From UHGV virus genome UHGV-1443735: DNA of 32,176 nucleotides. One strand, written 5' to 3'. Shown here piece after piece: positions 3,073 to 10,811 of this stretch. The notes beneath the pieces were generated by a model that was given only the letters and a program-made list of their open reading frames with translations, had not been told where the DNA came from and did no database searches. Each line of letters starts with the position of its first letter. Position 1 is the stretch's first letter. This DNA comes from a virus. The translations under genes were made by a program, and so were the position numbers.

Positions 3073-3361
3073 TACTGATAGCGCCATAGCGTGAGCGGTA
3101 ATTACGCAGGCGCGGGTCGATATATTCAGGGAAGTGGGTATATGTGGCTTTGCGGAATGGTCGGATTGATGTCTGGTAAATTCGCTCGCGTTCTTCTTTC
3201 TCTGCAAGCCATATACAATGGCGAAATTCCTTTTCCTCTTTCGTTTCCTGCGGTAGCGACATTATCAGGTCGTAGTTTTTTCTGAATTTATCCAGCACCT
3301 CCGATACGGAATTGCCGGAACAGCGGCGCGGGTCATCCGCACCATACAGAGGCGCTGGCAT
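3065..3361 (-). CDS. hypothetical protein (98 aa)
   Basis: ORF immediately downstream of the SSB-like gene; AAGG-like RBS upstream of the ATG. Confidence 0.55.
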
Positions 3362-3384
3362 AATGGGAGCCTTATTTTCAGTAA

Positions 3385-3972
3385 TCAGAAAGGAGGGTAA
3401 TCGTTCTGGCTGTAACCATAATCATCTGCATGATTCTGGCTTACGTTTTTAGAGCGATTGTCTTTATCTTTGAGATTGGCAACCATGTTGGCGATAGTTT
3501 CTGGTTGCTTGCCTTCTGCCTTTTCTTTAAGGGTTTGACCTGTTTGTGCAATAAACGGGATGCGTATTTCCATCTGGTAGCTGTCTGCGCCAGTCTTTTT
3601 GTTTGTGGTTAATACTTTCTGAAGCACTAACCCGATTTTCTTTCCATGAAATTCAGGTGCAACAAATTTACTGGCGGAAACCATATGCTGCGTTAATTGT
3701 CCAATCCCGGCACACCCCATCATGGCGTGAACGACATTTGCGCCAAATTTGTTTTCCGTTCCGTCATTTTTCTGAACACAGACGCTAAGATATTGGATTT
3801 TACGTCCGTCGTCGGATTCGCCAGAAAACTCAATAAATTTGGCTCCTTTTTCTGATTGCTTTAGTTCTGCTTCAGTAATGGTAATGATATGAGCGCCAGT
3901 TTCGTTAATAAAACCACCTTGCCCTGCGGTCAGTGCTGCTTCTTCGTTATAAGTAAAAATCACGTTGCTCAT
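3385..3972 (-). CDS. phage SSB-like ssDNA-binding protein, probable partner of Sak4 (195 aa)
   Basis: C-terminus DDYGYSQNDYPPF resembles the acidic SSB tail ending in (D)IPF. Start overlaps the stop of the upstream ATPase gene (ATGA). The pairing of Sak4-type ATPase with a cognate SSB is known from phage recombination modules. Confidence 0.6.
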   Translation of the reverse strand: MSNVIFTYNEEAALTAGQGGFINETGAHIITITEAELKQSEKGAKFIEFSGESDDGRKIQYLSVCVQKNDGTENKFGANVVHAMMGCAGIGQLTQHMVSASKFVAPEFHGKKIGLVLQKVLTTNKKTGADSYQMEIRIPFIAQTGQTLKEKAEGKQPETIANMVANLKDKDNRSKNVSQNHADDYGYSQNDYPPF

Positions 3973-4649
3973 GCGGCGTTTTCCTTAATTTGATGAACAT
4001 TATTGATGCCGTAGTAATCACAAACAGTGGCATCGACGAAAGAGAGATCGTTATCAATCTCATTGGAATCAAACATTCCCATTGGGGATTTAACAGTGTC
4101 TGCACCGTTGTTTTTCGTGGTGAAAAAGAACTGGTCATCGCGGGTAAGAGTGCGAAGAACTATAGTAAACATGCCTTCGACAGTGATTTTCTCGTCCAGC
4201 ATTTTGCCGATAGTTTTCATTTTCACGCGCCCCATAGGGGTTTCTTCGGTGTGCGCAAGAAAATAGACTCTCAGGTCATCAGGTGCATCCTGTGCAGCCT
4301 TAATCACCTCCCATGCGTGGCGGCCTATCTCAGTAAATTTATCAAACGATTTTTCTTCTGAGCGGCGCATAAACTCATTGCTCATCACATACTGGAAGTC
4401 ATCAACAATAACGATTCTTTTCCCGTATTCGTGAGCACGCTTAATTACGGCAACTATTACGTCCCATTTGTCAGTGGTAACTACGGTTCCTTTTTTTGCT
4501 CTGGCATCCCATGCCAGCCATTCTTTTGATTTAAATGGTAGCGGCTTGCCTATTGGTTTTATAAGTATTGCTTCCTCTGGATTGATATTTCTCATGCTGG
4601 TTGATTTTCCGGTGCCAGACTCACCGAGTATTAATGTCGCAGTTCCCAT
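3969..4649 (-). CDS. sak4: Sak4-like RecA-fold ATPase (AAA_24 family) (226 aa)
   Basis: N-terminal Walker A GESGTGKS and Walker B-like IVIVDDF; size and single-domain architecture match phage Sak4-type recombination ATPases. Confidence 0.75.
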   Translation of the reverse strand: MGTATLILGESGTGKSTSMRNINPEEAILIKPIGKPLPFKSKEWLAWDARAKKGTVVTTDKWDVIVAVIKRAHEYGKRIVIVDDFQYVMSNEFMRRSEEKSFDKFTEIGRHAWEVIKAAQDAPDDLRVYFLAHTEETPMGRVKMKTIGKMLDEKITVEGMFTIVLRTLTRDDQFFFTTKNNGADTVKSPMGMFDSNEIDNDLSFVDATVCDYYGINNVHQIKENAA

Positions 4650-5119: not shown

Positions 5120-6088
5120 TTAGTAGGTTATTTTTGTTGCGAATACTTCGCCTTTTACGATGGCTGTTATGATATTTTTAGCAACATCTTCTGATGCGCC
5201 AACCTTGATAAGGTCAGCAAGTATTTTGTTATTTACTTCTTTCCGGTGAGCTTTATCCTTTGCTCTACACTCTTCTTCTTCCTTGATTCTTTTTTCTTCT
5301 GCTATTCTGGCTTGCTCTTTTGCTTCAGCCTCGCGCCGGATTCGTTCAGCCTCCTCCTGTGCTTTTCGGCGTTCTGCTTCAATTGCCGCCTGCTTTTCTC
5401 TTTCAGCTCGTTCTGCTGCCTCTTTTGCTTCGCGCTGTGCTCGTTGCTCGGCTTCAATGCGTTCACGCTCTGCACGTTCCGCTGCGGCCTTAGCTTCTGC
5501 TTCTCGCCTTGCTGCTGCTTCAATTTCGGCTTTTGCCTTTGCTTCGGCTTCTGCTCTGGCTTTCTCTTCAGCTTCTCTTTTTAAGCGTTCTTCATGCTCT
5601 CGCTTTTCCTGCTCCGCTTTGAGTCTTGCCTCTTCTCTTTGGCGGTCAAATTCGCGATCCATCAAAATAGCTATTTCATGGTCAGACTCAATTTGCTTTG
5701 CGAGAGCTTCAGCTGCTGCCTTAGCTTCTTCTTCGGCTTTAATCCGTGCCTGTTCCTCCTCATAATCAGTAAGAGGCTGGCGTGCCTTGGATTTCAGCTC
5801 ATCAAGGCGATCACGCACTGTCTTGCGGTTGGCATCAATTAGCTTTGGAATTTCCTTCAGTTCAGCAACAAGGTCTTTTCCAAGACCATCGAGATATGTT
5901 TTCGTCTGCGCAACTTTATACGCCAGAGAAGCGATCTCCTTTCTGCCCTTTGCCGTTGTGATATCAGGCACAAAGGACATAACTTCACGTTCAACCTTTT
6001 GAAGGATTTCTTCAATCTGGTCGGCAGACTGAAATACAGTCATTGCATTTGCTTTTTCAATAACAACTAAATCTGTTACTTCACTCAT
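5120..6088 (-). CDS. coiled-coil protein with TolA-like E/A/K/R-rich repeat region (about 322 aa)
   Basis: Start refined to ATG at 6088 with GGAGG at 5-nt spacing. The central ~130 residues are low-complexity charged repeats (AEAKAKAEIEAAARREAEAK...); N- and C-terminal regions are non-repetitive. Confidence 0.7.
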   Translation of the reverse strand: MSEVTDLVVIEKANAMTVFQSADQIEEILQKVEREVMSFVPDITTAKGRKEIASLAYKVAQTKTYLDGLGKDLVAELKEIPKLIDANRKTVRDRLDELKSKARQPLTDYEEEQARIKAEEEAKAAAEALAKQIESDHEIAILMDREFDRQREEARLKAEQEKREHEERLKREAEEKARAEAEAKAKAEIEAAARREAEAKAAAERAERERIEAEQRAQREAKEAAERAEREKQAAIEAERRKAQEEAERIRREAEAKEQARIAEEKRIKEEEECRAKDKAHRKEVNNKILADLIKVGASEDVAKNIITAIVKGEVFATKITY

Positions 6089-6100
6089 ATATCCTCCATC

Positions 6101-6127
6101 AAAAAAATCGCCCTCACATCGGAGGGC
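6101..6127 (-). terminator. rho-independent terminator (minus strand)
   Basis: 6-bp stem GCCCTC/GAGGGC with 6-nt loop, followed on the minus strand by a run of 7 T, immediately upstream of the RBS of the 5120-6088 gene. Confidence 0.6.
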
Positions 6128-6222
6128 AAAGAAGATTTCCAATAATCAGAACAAGTCGGCTCCTGTTTAGTTACGAGCGACATTGCTCCGTGTATTCACT
6201 CGTTGGAATGAATACACAGTGC

Positions 6223-6411
6223 TTATTCGTCATGCATTTCAGGTAATTCTTCGTATTCGACTCCCCATACGAGTTTACACCAAGTGACTCGCTCATATCT
6301 TTTACAAAAATCAGACCACATAACTTGTGTTCCATCATGGTTTGTTATTACTTCTGTAATATCACCAACACTAACAAAACTGGTATTAGAAGCAGTTATT
6401 TTTACTTTCAT
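6223..6411 (-). CDS. small hypothetical protein (62 aa)
   Basis: ORF whose start overlaps the upstream gene's stop (TAATG). Confidence 0.5.
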   Translation of the reverse strand: MKVKITASNTSFVSVGDITEVITNHDGTQVMWSDFCKRYERVTWCKLVWGVEYEELPEMHDE

Positions 6412-6698
6412 TACTTATCCCCAAGAGCTTTTCTGATTGCTGCAAGACCTTTATTAACAGCTTCATACCATTCTGGATATGTTGTCGTTGTTCTATTTTT
6501 GGATTGCTTAAGTAATAACTGAAGTGCTTCGAGAAGGTCAGGTGCTGCCGCTATCAGTAGCGCATCCTCCCTTTCATTTCTTGTTGCTGCTTCAATGTAT
6601 GTGTCACCAATCGTCACACCATGGAACGTAGTCATCATCTCGTTGACGTTTCTAACCGTGTACTTCCATTTACCAGGCGTACCCTTAAACTCTTTCAT
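6411..6698 (-). CDS. hypothetical protein (about 95 aa)
   Basis: Start refined to ATG at 6698 (the ORF-track start at 6704 is a GTG) with GAGGTG RBS. Confidence 0.55.
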   Translation of the reverse strand: MKEFKGTPGKWKYTVRNVNEMMTTFHGVTIGDTYIEAATRNEREDALLIAAAPDLLEALQLLLKQSKNRTTTTYPEWYEAVNKGLAAIRKALGDK

Positions 6699-6715
6699 AT
6701 TCACCTCTGTTGTTT

Positions 6716-6746
6716 ATGCCCAAAATAAAGGCCGACTATGCGGCCT
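6716..6746 (-). terminator. terminator-like hairpin (minus strand), copy A of a repeated intergenic element
   Basis: Stem AGGCCG/CGGCCT with 6-nt loop followed by TTTATTTTG on the minus strand; lies between the membrane-protein gene and the next gene. Confidence 0.45.
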
Positions 6747-6750
6747 GAAA

Positions 6751-7200
6751 TTACTTAACCAATGATGCTGCATATTCGATAAGGTAAAGCTTTGGGGCCA
6801 GCCAAATTTTTAACCAAGTCATATTGGTTACTACACCAATAATAAAAATCCCCCACAGAGTCAAAACTACAACCAATGGCATGATAAGAAGATTAATATC
6901 ACCTTTGCTATCCCAAACCATTGTCGGCCTGTATTTGGGATTTCCTTTCTCCCATGAATATCCTTCATCACCGATTTTACCTGTCTCAACTCTTTGGCAC
7001 TGCTTCTTCATAAACCAGAAAACCAGTGGGATTGTTAGAATGGCCATTAATGTTTTAATCAGACTGTCAACCATATTCCATAGCAGCAACTGATGAACAA
7101 CATCAGGAATCTGTGCCTGGCTAAATGAAACAGCCGCGTCTATTCCATTACTGGCTTTTTGCAGTAGTTCTACGAGAATCTTGTTTGCTTGTTCTTCCAT
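6751..7200 (-). CDS. membrane protein with two predicted TM segments (149 aa), possible superinfection-exclusion-type function
   Basis: Two hydrophobic stretches (LMAILTIPLVFWF and LLIMPLVVVLTLWGIFIIGVV); ATG at 7200 with GAGGTG RBS. It sits where lambda and P22 carry sieB; functional call is by position only. Confidence 0.6.
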   Translation of the reverse strand: MEEQANKILVELLQKASNGIDAAVSFSQAQIPDVVHQLLLWNMVDSLIKTLMAILTIPLVFWFMKKQCQRVETGKIGDEGYSWEKGNPKYRPTMVWDSKGDINLLIMPLVVVLTLWGIFIIGVVTNMTWLKIWLAPKLYLIEYAASLVK

Positions 7201-7247
7201 ATCTCACCTCAAATAATTCAGTGCAGTGTTTATTCTGTTGTTTATGC

Positions 7248-7271
7248 CAAAAGAAGGCCGACTATGCGGCA
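7248..7271 (-). terminator. weak terminator-like hairpin (minus strand), copy B of the repeated intergenic element
   Basis: About 36 of 38 nt identical to the element at 6708-6746; shorter stem (GCCG/CGGC) and T-rich tail CTTCTTTTGG. Confidence 0.3.
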
Positions 7272-7280
7272 TAATTATTT

Positions 7281-7469
7281 TTAACTATCATCAATACATG
7301 GCACTTTATTCCAGTCGATATCGTTTTTATTGTCGTCCCACATGTCTTTGTTTTTGTATTTCTCGCTACATCCTAGGCAAATGTTGTATGGCCTACCGAT
7401 AAGGTTTAACGAAATACGTTGCATTTCATTTGATTCAAACATGTATCCACAGAACTGACATTTATGCAT
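7281..7469 (-). CDS. small zinc-ribbon protein (62 aa; CxxC...CxxC)
   Basis: MHKCQFCGY...NICLGCSEKY carries two CxxC pairs; ATG at 7469 preceded by a GAGGGGTG RBS. Confidence 0.55.
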   Translation of the reverse strand: MHKCQFCGYMFESNEMQRISLNLIGRPYNICLGCSEKYKNKDMWDDNKNDIDWNKVPCIDDS

Positions 7470-7472
7470 ATC

Positions 7473-7609
7473 TCACCCCTCATACAGTAGCTTACTGCCT
7501 AATTTCATTTTCTGGCGACCAACACAAGTCACACCCATTTCACTGCGTGGCTTGCGGTAGCTCTACGAGAATCTTGTTTGCTTGTTCTTCCATATATCAC
7601 CTCAAATAA
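7473..7609 (-). pseudogene. recombination scar: 5-prime fragment of the membrane-protein gene fused to a 3-prime fragment of an N-like gene
   Basis: 7560-7609 is a near-identical copy (about 50 bp, including 34 identical nt) of 7167-7216, i.e. the RBS plus the first 12 codons of the 6751-7200 gene. 7528-7555 is 28 nt identical to 7849-7876 inside N, and the frame continues as KPRSEMGVTCVGRQKMKLGSKLLYEG*, an N-type C-terminus. Confidence 0.6.
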
Positions 7610-7647
7610 GTGGTTTGCTGCGAAAGTAAATACGCTTAAGTTACCTG

Positions 7648-7785
7648 TTATTTATCCCACCAAGTTCCGTATCTATCTATCCAGTTACACCAATCATCGA
7701 CACTCCATTTTGTTGTGTCGCATTTTGGCAACTGGCATGAATATCTACCTTCTTTGTAAAGTCGGCGTTTGACTTTCTTGAGCAT
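7648..7785 (-). CDS. small Cys-containing hypothetical protein (45 aa)
   Basis: Found by manual translation (MLKKVKRRLYKEGRYSCQLPKCDTTKWSVDDWCNWIDRYGTWWDK). ATG lies 8 nt after the N stop with a GAGGTGAG RBS; below the ORF-track cutoff. Confidence 0.3.
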   Translation of the reverse strand: MLKKVKRRLYKEGRYSCQLPKCDTTKWSVDDWCNWIDRYGTWWDK

Positions 7786-7793
7786 GGCTCACC

Positions 7794-8126
7794 TCAATCG
7801 TAATAAGCTGGAATTGATTTTCCGCGTTGCTTCTGGCGGCCTGAGCATGTCACACCCATTTCACTGCGTGGCTTGCTGTACCATGTGCGATGATTCTTGC
7901 GCTCAACAGCTTCAGCGCGTTTTTCCATCTCTTCCCGATACTCAGCCAGCACCGTTAAATCAATCGGGTTCAGAGCGCTTTCTACGCGTGATTTAGGCTT
8001 TCGAGTCAGCGAGAGAATTTTGCGGGTGTCTGGCTTGGCGCTTACCCCAACTAACAGGGGGTTTGCTGCTTTCCATTGAGCCTGTTTCTCTGCGCGACGT
8101 TCGCGGCGGCGTGTTTGTGCATCCAT
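7794..8126 (-). CDS. N: antitermination protein N, lambda type (110 aa)
   Basis: N-terminus MDAQTRRRERRAEKQAQWKAANPLLVGVSAKP matches lambda N (arginine-rich boxB-binding motif); RBS CAGGAGAATCCAG-ATG; nutL lies upstream. Confidence 0.92.
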   Translation of the reverse strand: MDAQTRRRERRAEKQAQWKAANPLLVGVSAKPDTRKILSLTRKPKSRVESALNPIDLTVLAEYREEMEKRAEAVERKNHRTWYSKPRSEMGVTCSGRQKQRGKSIPAYYD

Positions 8127-8394
8127 CTGGATTCTCCTGTCAGTTAGCTTTGGTGGTGTGGTGGCTGGTAGTCTAGCTCCAGCTTGTTGAGTCTCATTCG
8201 GAGGGGTATAACCGGCACCCCAGTGATTTTTCCATGCGACAACGTGCGCGTTATGGCGGCCTTATCGCCCGCGGCTCCCCATCTCGTCCACGCTATTGCT
8301 AGCGTTGGGAGCGCTTCACCGCTCAACAGTAGGTAAGCACTTGCCAGTGACTAGCTGGCTTCACCACACCCCAAAGCCTTCTGCTTTGAATGCT

Positions 8395-8424
8395 GCCCTT
8401 CTTCAGGGCTTAATTTTTAAGAGC
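8395..8424 (-). promoter_or_regulatory. nutL: nutL (boxA-like GCTCTTAAA, boxB GCCCTGAAGAAGGGC)
   Basis: Read on the minus strand, boxB is GCCCTGAAGAAGGGC (plus 8395-8409) with a boxA-like TGCTCTTAA just 5-prime of it, about 270 nt upstream of N, as in lambda. Confidence 0.85.
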
Positions 8425-8457
8425 ATCACCTTCATGGTGGTCAGTGCGTCCTGCTGA

Positions 8458-8493
8458 TGGCTAGATAATCACAAATTGTGTTCGTGCTGTCAA
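8458..8493 (-). promoter_or_regulatory. pL-like early leftward promoter
   Basis: On the minus strand: -35 TTGACA (8493..8488), 17-nt spacer, -10 GATTAT (8470..8465); overlaps two operator-like sites. Confidence 0.55.
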
Positions 8494-8614: not shown

Positions 8615-9256
8615 TCAGGAGAATTTCATCATCATCTGCACTGCTACGCCGATTATCTTGCAGTTGCCGTCGATTGGGATCAACGGATAGGCAGGGTTAA
8701 GCCCTTTCAGGTATTTGTTACCGCCATCAATGATTAGCTTCTTGAACGTGGCTTCATTAGCATCTGTCAGCTTCGCAACTACCAGGCTTCCATTAACGGC
8801 TTCCTTTCCAGTGTCGAACAGAACCAGCATACCCTCAGGAACGCTAAGGCCGGTAGGAGCTGTCATTGAGTCGCCCTGAACCCTGAGCCAGAAGGCGTCA
8901 CCGACAACGTGACAATCTGATTCATACCACTCATCCACTGCCTGAGGGTTGTACGGCTCTACGGCCTCACTCCATGCACCTGCGCTAACCCAGCTAATCA
9001 ACGGAAACTTTTCCCCTGGCTTGTATTGTCCCTGATAGTTGTCGCCAAAAAGCAGTTCTGCCGGAGCGACGCCCAAAGCTTTAGCTATTACCTCTGCGTC
9101 ATCAACACTAACGCTTCTGGTTCCTGATTCATAGTTGCCGATCCGAGATTGTGAAGCCCAGCCGCAAAGCTCCGCCAGCGCCTTCTGTGAAAGCCCTTTA
9201 TCTTCCCGTAATCGCTTGATACGCGCGGCGATAGTTTCTGTTCTGTTCATGCGCAT
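8615..9256 (-). CDS. cI: CI/C2-family prophage repressor (HTH_XRE N-terminal domain, S24 LexA-like C-terminal domain)
   Basis: HTH LSQKALAELCGWASQSRIGNYE, then a C-terminal domain (PLISWVSAGAW...VQGDSMTAP...LVVAKL...) with the Ser/Lys dyad, very similar to P22 C2. No RBS before the ATGs at 9256/9250, consistent with a leaderless pRM transcript. Confidence 0.9.
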   Translation of the reverse strand: MRMNRTETIAARIKRLREDKGLSQKALAELCGWASQSRIGNYESGTRSVSVDDAEVIAKALGVAPAELLFGDNYQGQYKPGEKFPLISWVSAGAWSEAVEPYNPQAVDEWYESDCHVVGDAFWLRVQGDSMTAPTGLSVPEGMLVLFDTGKEAVNGSLVVAKLTDANEATFKKLIIDGGNKYLKGLNPAYPLIPIDGNCKIIGVAVQMMMKFS

Positions 9257-9989: not shown

Positions 9990-10010
9990 CTGCTTTCTAT
10001 GGAGTTAATT

Positions 10011-10811
10011 ATGGCAAAAAAACCTACACCAGACCAGGTAAAAAAGATTCGTTCCGGCATTACCAAGAAAATACGGTTTGAGGTTTTCAAGCGCGATGGC
10101 TTCAAATGCCAGTACTGTGGGAGTTCTGCGCCAGACGTCATCCTTCATGTCGACCATATCAACCCAGTTAGCAAGGGTGGCGATAACGACATGATGAACC
10201 TTATTACTTCTTGCGATAGTTGTAATGGCGGGAAAAGCGACAAACTGCTCAGCGATAACTCAATAATGGAAAAGCAAAGGCAGCAACTCCAGGAACTTAA
10301 TACCAAGCGAGAGCAACTGGAGATGATGATCAAGTGGCGAGATGGTCTTAAGAGCCTGAAAGACGATGTTGTTGATATTGTCGCTACCAAAATTGACGAC
10401 TGCATTGCGCCATTTACTGTTAATGACAATGGGCGAAAATCTATCAAGAGATGGCTTCGAATATATAAGCTTGAAGAAATCCTCGATGCGATTGAGATTG
10501 CTGCAGACAAAAAACTCACCCAAGAAATAACCCATGAGCTTACTGGTGAATTCTTTGAGTACATCCCTCGCATAGCAGCGACAAAAAGAAAACCGCCAAA
10601 AGAACAAAGGATTCTATACATCAGAGGAATCCTTAAAAACCGCATATATATCAATCAAAACCATGTAATGAGTTATCTCAAGGCATGGCTTTCATACGAC
10701 TTAGATCTCGATGAACTTACTGAGTTTGCGAAAACAGTACCTAACTGGACAACGTTCAAGGAGTGGGTATCTGAACGCATTCGTGAAGCTCAGGAAGAAC
10801 TCCCGTACTAA
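10011..10811 (+). CDS. HNH endonuclease (N-terminal HNH domain, uncharacterised C-terminal domain; about 266 aa)
   Basis: HNH motif CQYCGSS...HVDHINPVSKGG...CDSCNGGK; start refined to ATG at 10011 with GGAG RBS. The gene is AT-rich compared with the lambda-type cII flank. Confidence 0.8.
   Translation: MAKKPTPDQVKKIRSGITKKIRFEVFKRDGFKCQYCGSSAPDVILHVDHINPVSKGGDNDMMNLITSCDSCNGGKSDKLLSDNSIMEKQRQQLQELNTKREQLEMMIKWRDGLKSLKDDVVDIVATKIDDCIAPFTVNDNGRKSIKRWLRIYKLEEILDAIEIAADKKLTQEITHELTGEFFEYIPRIAATKRKPPKEQRILYIRGILKNRIYINQNHVMSYLKAWLSYDLDLDELTEFAKTVPNWTTFKEWVSERIREAQEELPY

Follow-up and report, generated by a model that had tools for sequence, protein, structure and literature searches.

A probable recombination scar in the leftward early operon of a lambdoid phage, with the 5' part of a membrane-protein gene fused to the tail of another N allele

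The feature under study, 137 bases long, belongs to the leftward early (pL) operon of UHGV virus genome UHGV-1443735, a mosaic phage of the lambdoid, P22-like kind. A stretch of 32,176 nucleotides, referred to here as the window, was analyzed. All genes of this region are on the - strand. The nearest isolate was phage Louie, with 98% identity over 40% of 25 kb. The features of the locus are the following:

9256..8615, - strand: repressor, the first in transcription order
7794..8126, - strand: intact lambda-type antiterminator N, 110 aa (Pfam N36, 9.4e-23; phrog_271)
7831..7880, - strand: N 3' core (C), copy 1 of repeat D2, encoding ...KPRSEMGVTC, 86% identical to 7510-7559
7648..7785, - strand: orf45, small accessory gene with DUF5484, Sf6 gene 36 family (Pfam 2.6e-12; phrog_1871; gene 36 in the Sf6 annotation)
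7591..7621, - strand: copy 1 of the linker L, GCAGCAAACCACTTATTTGAGGTGATATATG, with RBS and ATG, a conserved intergenic boundary sequence
7473..7609, - strand: the scar, between orf45 and the zinc-ribbon gene
7560..7609, - strand: 5' remnant of the membrane gene, RBS and codons 1-11/12, within copy 2 of repeat D1, 95% identical to 7159-7216
7552..7559, - strand: the junction, microhomology CTAC[C]GCAA (TTGCGGTA(G) on the + strand), located by three-way alignment of E. coli BEN2908, the window and locus L023
7473..7559, - strand: 3' remnant of N', the final 29 codons of another N allele, holding the Shine-Dalgarno sequence GAGGGG of the zinc-ribbon gene (matches in mEp213 and L023)
7281..7469, - strand: zinc-ribbon gene (ZnR), 62 aa, two CxxC pairs (phrog_19863, 5.6e-47)
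7234..7285, - strand: T', degenerate copy of the terminator-like spacer T (repeat families D5 and D7)
7159..7216, - strand: copy 1 of D1, linker TTATTTGAGGTGAGATATG and first 12 codons of the intact membrane gene (repeat search)
6751..7200, - strand: intact membrane-protein gene (mem), 149 aa (phrog_3054, 1.1e-64)
6706..6759, - strand: T, intrinsic-terminator-like hairpin, AGGCCGCATAGTCGGCCT + TTTATTTT (terminator scan; fold)
6411..6704, - strand: orf97, downstream of T

Positions 7582-8462 were 95.4% identical to Sf6 N-gp36. No Pfam match was found for ZnR, mem, orf97 or orf75, and all four were assigned to PHROGs families of unknown function. The membrane gene is bracketed by a third repeat pair, the terminator-like spacer at 6706-6759 and 7234-7285. 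The downstream copy, T, keeps a good hairpin and U-tract (-10.9 kcal/mol), and in the upstream copy, T', the stem is lost and the hairpin is weak (-6.8 kcal/mol, z -0.3). Further downstream, positions 6085-6222 are homologous to the Sf6 "bsq4 boundary sequence" / tL2A region, with 94-98% identity in mEp213, Sf6, SfI, Louie, LF82, BEN2908 and Stx phages. It was always found beside a T-like hairpin and always formed the downstream limit of the variable post-N region. Directly downstream of this bsq element, in the position of Sf6 gene 33, a 340-aa ORF (5120-6142; phrog_1376, function unknown) has a long, highly charged and repetitive centre rich in E, A, K and R. An HNH-endonuclease-like gene of 270 aa (9999-10811) lies between the cII-like region and the replication initiator, and its homologues occupy the equivalent site in Louie, Dewey and several contigs (L020, L026, L028).

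The scar is built of two halves, each repeated elsewhere in the operon. The first-pass annotation had read 7560-7609 as a duplicate of about 50 bp of the membrane-gene start. Repeat search and direct comparison gave a somewhat longer repeat, D1, in which 7552-7609 and 7159-7216 agree at 55 of 58 positions (95%) with a longest exact run of 34 nt. The 149-aa gene contributes to D1 its RBS, its start codon ATG and its first 12 codons (MEEQANKILVEL). The other half belongs to D2 (7510-7559 and 7831-7880, 50 nt, 86% identical), and the 28-nt identity to N at 7849-7876 reported earlier was found again as the exact run 7528-7555. Among 200 shuffled versions of 6500-8400, none had an exact direct repeat longer than 17 nt (mean of the longest, 10.2), compared to 34 observed. 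Both repeats are far above chance, and neither was shorter or less identical than had been read at first.

D1 and D2 overlap at 7552-7559 (TTGCGGTA on the + strand), and this overlap is the junction. Read in the N frame, 7473-7559 ends in ...KPRSEMGVTCVGRQKMKLGSKLLYEG* with its stop 3 nt before the ATG of ZnR, in agreement with the divergent N-type C-terminus proposed for this half. The N' tail in the scar is without its N-terminal 81 codons. The fusion to mem is out of frame, and the ATG at 7593 opens an ORF of only 17 codons, MEEQANKILVELPQATQ*, ending at 7540. Neither a tandem repeat nor a transposon fits as the origin, and both were rejected: the 58-nt repeats are the 5' end of a gene, and neither inverted repeats nor a transposase were found. 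The two overlapping direct-repeat pairs are spaced 393 bp (58 nt) and 321 bp (50 nt). They predict two viable deletion products, a BEN2908-like N-orf45-mem and an N-ZnR-mem in which N has a hybrid tail. The N protein of locus L012 (= L020) is exactly the predicted hybrid, with residues 1-94 of the window's N followed by the N' tail.

A synthetic join of window positions 7060-7216 and 7610-7790 was used as a pre-event query. It matched E. coli BEN2908 in one piece over 338 nt with 98.5% identity. BEN2908 carries N-orf45-linker-mem without interruption, that is, an "empty site", and the intact arrangement of N, a small ORF and the membrane gene that had been predicted from the window is therefore present in a bacterial genome. 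Contiguous similarity extended over 6706-7216 (T through mem, 99.4%) and 7552-8168 (linker, orf45 and N, 91.6%). Compared to BEN2908, the window holds a 393-bp insert between the 58-nt direct repeats.

The other half of the scar has its counterpart in genomes in which ZnR directly follows an intact N. In mEp213, window 7234-7559 was matched at 99.7% over 326 bp by the last 87 nt of an intact N (gp51, C-terminus ...EMGVTCVGRQKMKLGSKLLYEG*), gp50 (= ZnR) and the spacer, and Louie holds the N'-ZnR unit at 98.3%. The window's spacing of 3 nt between the N stop and the ZnR ATG recurs in mEp213, Louie and loci L020, L021, L023, L024 and L025. An exact-protein look-up placed the ZnR protein in 1015 blocks of the assembly collection, and it is common in enterobacterial assemblies. 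ZnR was the next gene after N in 10 out of 10 places listed among the 1015 blocks indexed, and in the places listed the gap was 3 nt after a lambda-type or HK620-type N and 59 nt after a 933W-type N. The second predicted arrangement, an N allele directly followed by the zinc-ribbon gene, was thus found in mEp213, Louie, L023 and others.

Locus L023 (GCA_000408625.1, scaffold KE137202.1) was the most informative, with the order N'(101 aa)-ZnR-T'-linker-149-aa membrane gene. It matched window 7560..6706 contiguously with 99.3% identity over 855 bp, and the match begins exactly at the junction. This supports the earlier proposal that the event itself placed the zinc-ribbon gene here. The ZnR-T'-mem join (7100-7480) was absent from the complete E. 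coli genomes and present in the draft assembly of L023. The N' protein of L023 reads ...IYYRKPRSEMGVTC..., with the DNA TACTACCGCAAGCC. The N' parent at the junction is of a type with an HK620-type N-terminus and a lambda-like C-terminus (YYRKPRSEM, TAC CGC AAG). The junction base C is native to this allele, the window's own N having A and mem having T. It is explained by the L023-type allele, which natively has TACTACCGCAAGCC.

Two other observations concern N genes in such operons. mEp213 (L001) holds two N-type genes in one pL operon, the lambda-type gp51 and the HK620-type gp47 (1798-2070 and 3223-3555); no discussion of these two genes was found in the searchable literature. A second, independent scar was seen in L016, L017, L018 and L022 around 2438-2500 (window equivalent 7532/7525..7473). 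Here GTGA is the point where the stop of a 127-aa N of the 933W/H-19B type meets a lambda-type N' tail remnant of about 53 nt, which lies directly upstream of the same zinc-ribbon gene (100% identity to window 7532-7198).

In the three-way alignment, the window equals BEN2908 through ...GTAGA(G)CTAC and equals L023 from CTACCGCAAGCC on. Likeness to each parent ends within the crossover microhomology CTAC[T/C]GCAA, 9 nt with one mismatch, and the short shared sequence noticed earlier at the mem/N fusion point is thereby located. The two halves of the scar come from non-allelic positions, both parental arrangements exist uninterrupted, the homology at the joint is a few bases and both gene remnants are broken. 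These are the features of an illegitimate-recombination scar, of which lack of function would be a further one, suggested here indirectly. The proposal that recombination fused the beginning of the membrane gene to the terminal part of another N allele is upheld.

The same junction was found in five other loci with four other combinations of flanks, five combinations with the window included. The holders are the E. coli genomes ABWA45 and L4_E1441, two IMG/VR viral contigs and one metagenome contig. A junction-spanning 86-mer was found in one piece in 2 of 5,426 complete E. coli genomes, ABWA45 (100%) and L4_E1441 (98.8%). In the other 68 E. coli genomes listed, where the joined place covered at least 80% of the 86-mer, the halves were separate, in parental-type arrangements. 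The junction patterns were also found in the two IMG/VR contigs and the metagenome contig; a degenerate junction pattern found nothing in viral contigs beyond these two exact matches, and the exact 29-nt junction string had no match in 185,579 species-representative genomes. For the whole arrangement 6400-8200, no place with at least 80% coverage was found in phages and complete E. coli genomes, and it was recovered in full solely by exact-protein look-up. The gene orders around the junction are:

ABWA45 and L013: N(933W-type), orf75, scar, Sf6-type N tail, orf45, then DUF7446 or another gene
L4_E1441 and L011: N-like gene, orf75, scar, N' tail, Nmad5 gene
L012 (= L020): N, ZnR, T', scar, N tail, orf45, DUF7446 (the DUF7446 gene called in L020)
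Window: N, orf45, scar, N' tail, ZnR, T', mem

The order of the modules is opposite in the window (orf45 before ZnR) and in L012 (ZnR before orf45). In the alignment all copies of the junction were identical from the linker through ...GAAATGGGTGT(G/T)AC, and the breakpoints to the right of the junction lay at varied positions within the N 3' region. All six loci have GAG instead of GAA beside the junction, and the parental-type copies of mem and N examined do not have it. Since neither sampled parent has GAG, the actual parental alleles must lie outside the sample. Judged by this distribution the scar is inherited and reshuffled, and not private to this phage. A single origin of the junction is probable, since later homologous exchange of one junction would be far more parsimonious than its repeated formation. 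The junction cores of the five contexts are too similar to polarise for the ancestral one. Because the junction is shared between different flanks, the event need not have taken place in the lineage of this phage; the junction could be older, formed in the orf75-linker-mem context (four loci) or in L012 and transferred later by homologous recombination. The earlier interpretation essentially holds for the nature of the scar and for its parents, and was incomplete regarding its history.

Some further features of these genomes were observed. In GCA_000351345.1, which also holds the junction-bearing prophage L012/L020, scaffold KB732598.1 (L018, L019) carries a putative tandem duplication of the whole N(933W-type)-ZnR-orf156 module. 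The joint between the copies connects a bsq-like sequence (window 6158) with sequence immediately before N (window 8214). ABWA45 (L004) has an intact 127-codon ORF for a 933W-type N at 3369-3752 (Pfam N_peptide, 2.1e-15), and RefSeq gives there just a 69-nt pseudogene, "regulator, incomplete, missing N-terminus". A similar 69-nt annotation is found in L4_E1441. The call in ABWA45 looks like an annotation gap and not like a true pseudogene.

Both ends of the scar lie in sequences that are conserved between otherwise different flanks. The linker of about 31 nt (GCAGCAAACCACTTATTTGAGGTGAKATATG; window copies at 7591-7621 and 7198-7216) was found in 15 loci (L001-L015); N tails, orf45 or orf75 precede it, and at least five unrelated genes, each beginning with ATGGAA, follow it. 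At the left end of the core shared by the junction copies it reads GCAGCAAACCACTTATTTGAGGTGA(T/G)ATATG. Over its first 20 nt the linker corresponds to the end of an N reading frame, which is GCAGCAAACCACTTATTTGA where the linker follows N tails. The spacers after orf45 and orf75 consequently look like older and shorter N-tail remnants. The sister contigs L027 and L028 were 98.6-99.3% identical to the window through repressor, N and orf45, and diverge exactly at the ATG, 7591. An identical short sequence between non-homologous flanks in several phages is what defines a boundary sequence in the HK620-Sf6 sense, and, judged from these alignments, both ends of the scar, the linker and the N 3' core, behave like boundary sequences. 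The breakpoints at 7591, at 7621 and within 7504-7528 suggest recombination within the linker and the N 3' core. The phage encodes a Sak4-like annealing protein and an SSB at 3385-4649. Two sources of mosaic joints are under debate, short conserved boundary sequences and illegitimate recombination (PMC3029335), and Rad52-like phage recombinases are able to recombine short diverged sequences (PMC3945230).

Taken together, there is good reason to regard 7473-7609 as the non-functional scar of one microhomology-mediated illegitimate recombination between two lambdoid genomes. Both halves, both parental arrangements, the microhomology, the disruption of the frame and the occurrence of the junction in other loci were observed directly. 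The left parent would have been of the BEN2908 type, N-orf45-linker-mem, and the right parent of the GCA_000408625.1 type, N'-ZnR-T'-linker-mem. A crossover at CTAC[T/C]GCAA would have joined codon 12 of the pL-operon membrane gene to codon -29 of the N gene of the other genome. The product would have retained the intact N and orf45 of the left genome and acquired ZnR from the right genome, with its RBS inside the N' tail, together with that genome's copy of mem. The event presumably happened once. A junction fragment of about 85-118 nt, bounded by the conserved linker GCAGCAAACCACTTATTTGAGGTGAKATATG on one side and the conserved N 3' core on the other, may then have spread to other prophages by homologous recombination. 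Phage annealing proteins, such as the Sak4-like protein of this phage, would be the likely agents of the transfer.

The same product would result from a deletion in cis, if N-orf45-mem... and N'-ZnR-T'-mem... had once been in tandem and the segment from codon 12 of the first mem to codon -29 of the second N had been lost. This was the reading preferred in the first-pass annotation, which proposed an internal deletion between adjacent pL modules. Such a route is possible, since natural tandems of N modules occur in mEp213 (gp51, and the second N-like gp47 about 1.1 kb downstream) and in GCA_000351345.1 (the duplicated N(933W-type)-ZnR-orf156, L018 and L019). However, no genome with the required tandem N-orf45-mem...N'-ZnR was found, the search with 6400-8200 giving no place of at least 80% in phages and complete E. 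coli genomes, and an unequal crossover between two co-resident genomes needs one event and not two, the formation of the tandem and its deletion. Furthermore, the junction occurs with another left flank (orf75) and other right flanks, so its formation in this lineage is unnecessary. The deletion in cis is therefore not borne out and is regarded as unlikely. An independent repeated formation, with the microhomology acting as a hotspot, is hardly credible: CTAC.GCAA is indeed present in mem and in the L023-type N alleles examined, but repeated use of exactly one point in an imperfect microhomology of 9 nt would not be expected, and all six loci share the identical crossover point and the GAG absent from the parental-type copies examined. 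An error of short-read assembly, in which two co-occurring phages were merged through the 50-58-nt repeats, was given equally little weight. Such repeats are long enough to mislead assemblies made with small k, and Logan contig L029 stops at 7592, just inside D1 (7552-7609), a break typical of short-read assemblers. The junction itself, however, is present in two finished E. coli chromosomes, and an independent ENA contig of 49,970 bp was 100% identical over the 5,333 bp retrieved (2 samples, with 3 further similar places). On this evidence the arrangement is real and not an assembly artefact.

It is also very improbable that the fragment is functional, either as a translational-coupling relay that drives expression of ZnR or as an active micropeptide. 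A strong RBS, the 17-codon ORF, a TGAAATG stop-restart and a 21-codon ORF in the N' frame ending 3 nt before the ZnR ATG could form such a relay, and the N' tail always accompanies ZnR, its 53-nt remnant persisting even behind the unrelated 933W-type N. ZnR, however, has its own Shine-Dalgarno sequence (GAGGGG) in the last 15 nt of the N' tail, and the membrane-gene part is missing from almost all ZnR loci. A promoter scan gave no promoter-like site inside the scar or on the - strand of 7200-7650. The RNA fold of the scar had no excess stability compared to shuffles (z = +0.15), and Rfam at a permissive threshold gave no match in the scar, a chance match to rsmX lying outside the feature. Nor was wide conservation seen in relatives, the junction being present in 2 of 5,426 E. 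coli genomes, 2 viral contigs and 1 metagenome contig. A small ORF conserved for its function in many relatives, which would have spoken against a recombination scar, was thus not seen. Since the scar is rare and has neither RNA structure nor promoter, a conserved functional element is unlikely, and because all copies of the junction are nearly identical, no selection signal can be extracted from them. Rarity and the lack of such signals suggest that the scar has no function of its own. The last approximately 15 nt of the N' tail, with the Shine-Dalgarno sequence of ZnR, are probably kept for a reason; ZnR keeps a remnant of the N' tail even behind the unrelated 933W-type N in L016, L017, L018 and L022.

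The scar is a clean example of known lambdoid mosaicism. In the model of Hendrix and Juhala, the mosaic joints of lambdoid phages are reportedly produced by illegitimate recombination; PMC3029335 and PMC3945230 give summaries. Like such joints, the scar is a novel joint of non-homologous positions with a few bases of microhomology, and it owes its survival to a product in which every essential function is kept. Most lambdoid joints described lie at gene boundaries and have no recognisable remnants, whereas this one lies inside two genes, and for that reason both remnants and both parental arrangements are still identifiable. The linker GCAGCAAACCACTTATTTGAGGTGAKATATG and the N 3' core resemble the "bsq" features of HK620 and Sf6 in being identical between non-homologous flanks in many phages. 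The scar itself differs in that it is not an annotated bsq and is a composite that ends in two different boundary sequences, and it can therefore connect modules that are normally found in alternative positions. Morons are autonomous accessory gene cassettes in phage genomes. ZnR resembles them in being a small accessory gene that is followed by a terminator-like element and that may be there or missing where the neighbours are conserved. Unlike a moron, it has no promoter that could be found and its T' is degenerate with a weak hairpin; it appears to be expressed within the pL operon and to travel with the N tail. In mEp213 (NC_019720) the N'-ZnR-T unit, 99.7% identical to 7234-7559, is followed by a second N-like module downstream, so that pL-proximal modules are naturally stacked, but both N genes are intact and there is no mem::N junction. 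The relaxed recombination described by De Paepe et al. 2014 (PMC3945230) would explain how a fragment of about 100 bp moves by homologies of 30-50 nt, with the difference that Rad52-like proteins acted there on hundreds of bp and that a Sak4-type protein and homologies of 30-58 nt would be involved here.

It is conceivable, but quite doubtful, that the scar acts as a portable adapter, with its linker end closing a post-N accessory module and its N 3' core end opening one. With ends of two kinds, such an adapter could allow homologous recombination to place side by side, or in a changed order, modules that would otherwise exclude each other as alleles. If so, each module would be reversibly deletable by single-strand annealing at the direct repeats, and a population might switch among N-orf45-mem, N(hybrid tail)-ZnR-mem and the stacked form.

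The scar reveals no new mechanism or gene function. For annotation, it indicates that a short fragment labelled "N-like" or "regulator, incomplete" behind the N gene of a lambdoid prophage can be such a scar. The debate on mosaicism, illegitimate recombination versus homologous recombination at short conserved sequences, is usually argued from joints without a reconstructable history. At this compact locus both processes are legible: one illegitimate joint has its remnants, parental arrangements and microhomology preserved, and the same joint is redistributed to at least four other combinations of flanks through the conserved sequences on either side of it. It is thus a useful worked example of lambdoid mosaicism and a ready substrate for recombination assays.
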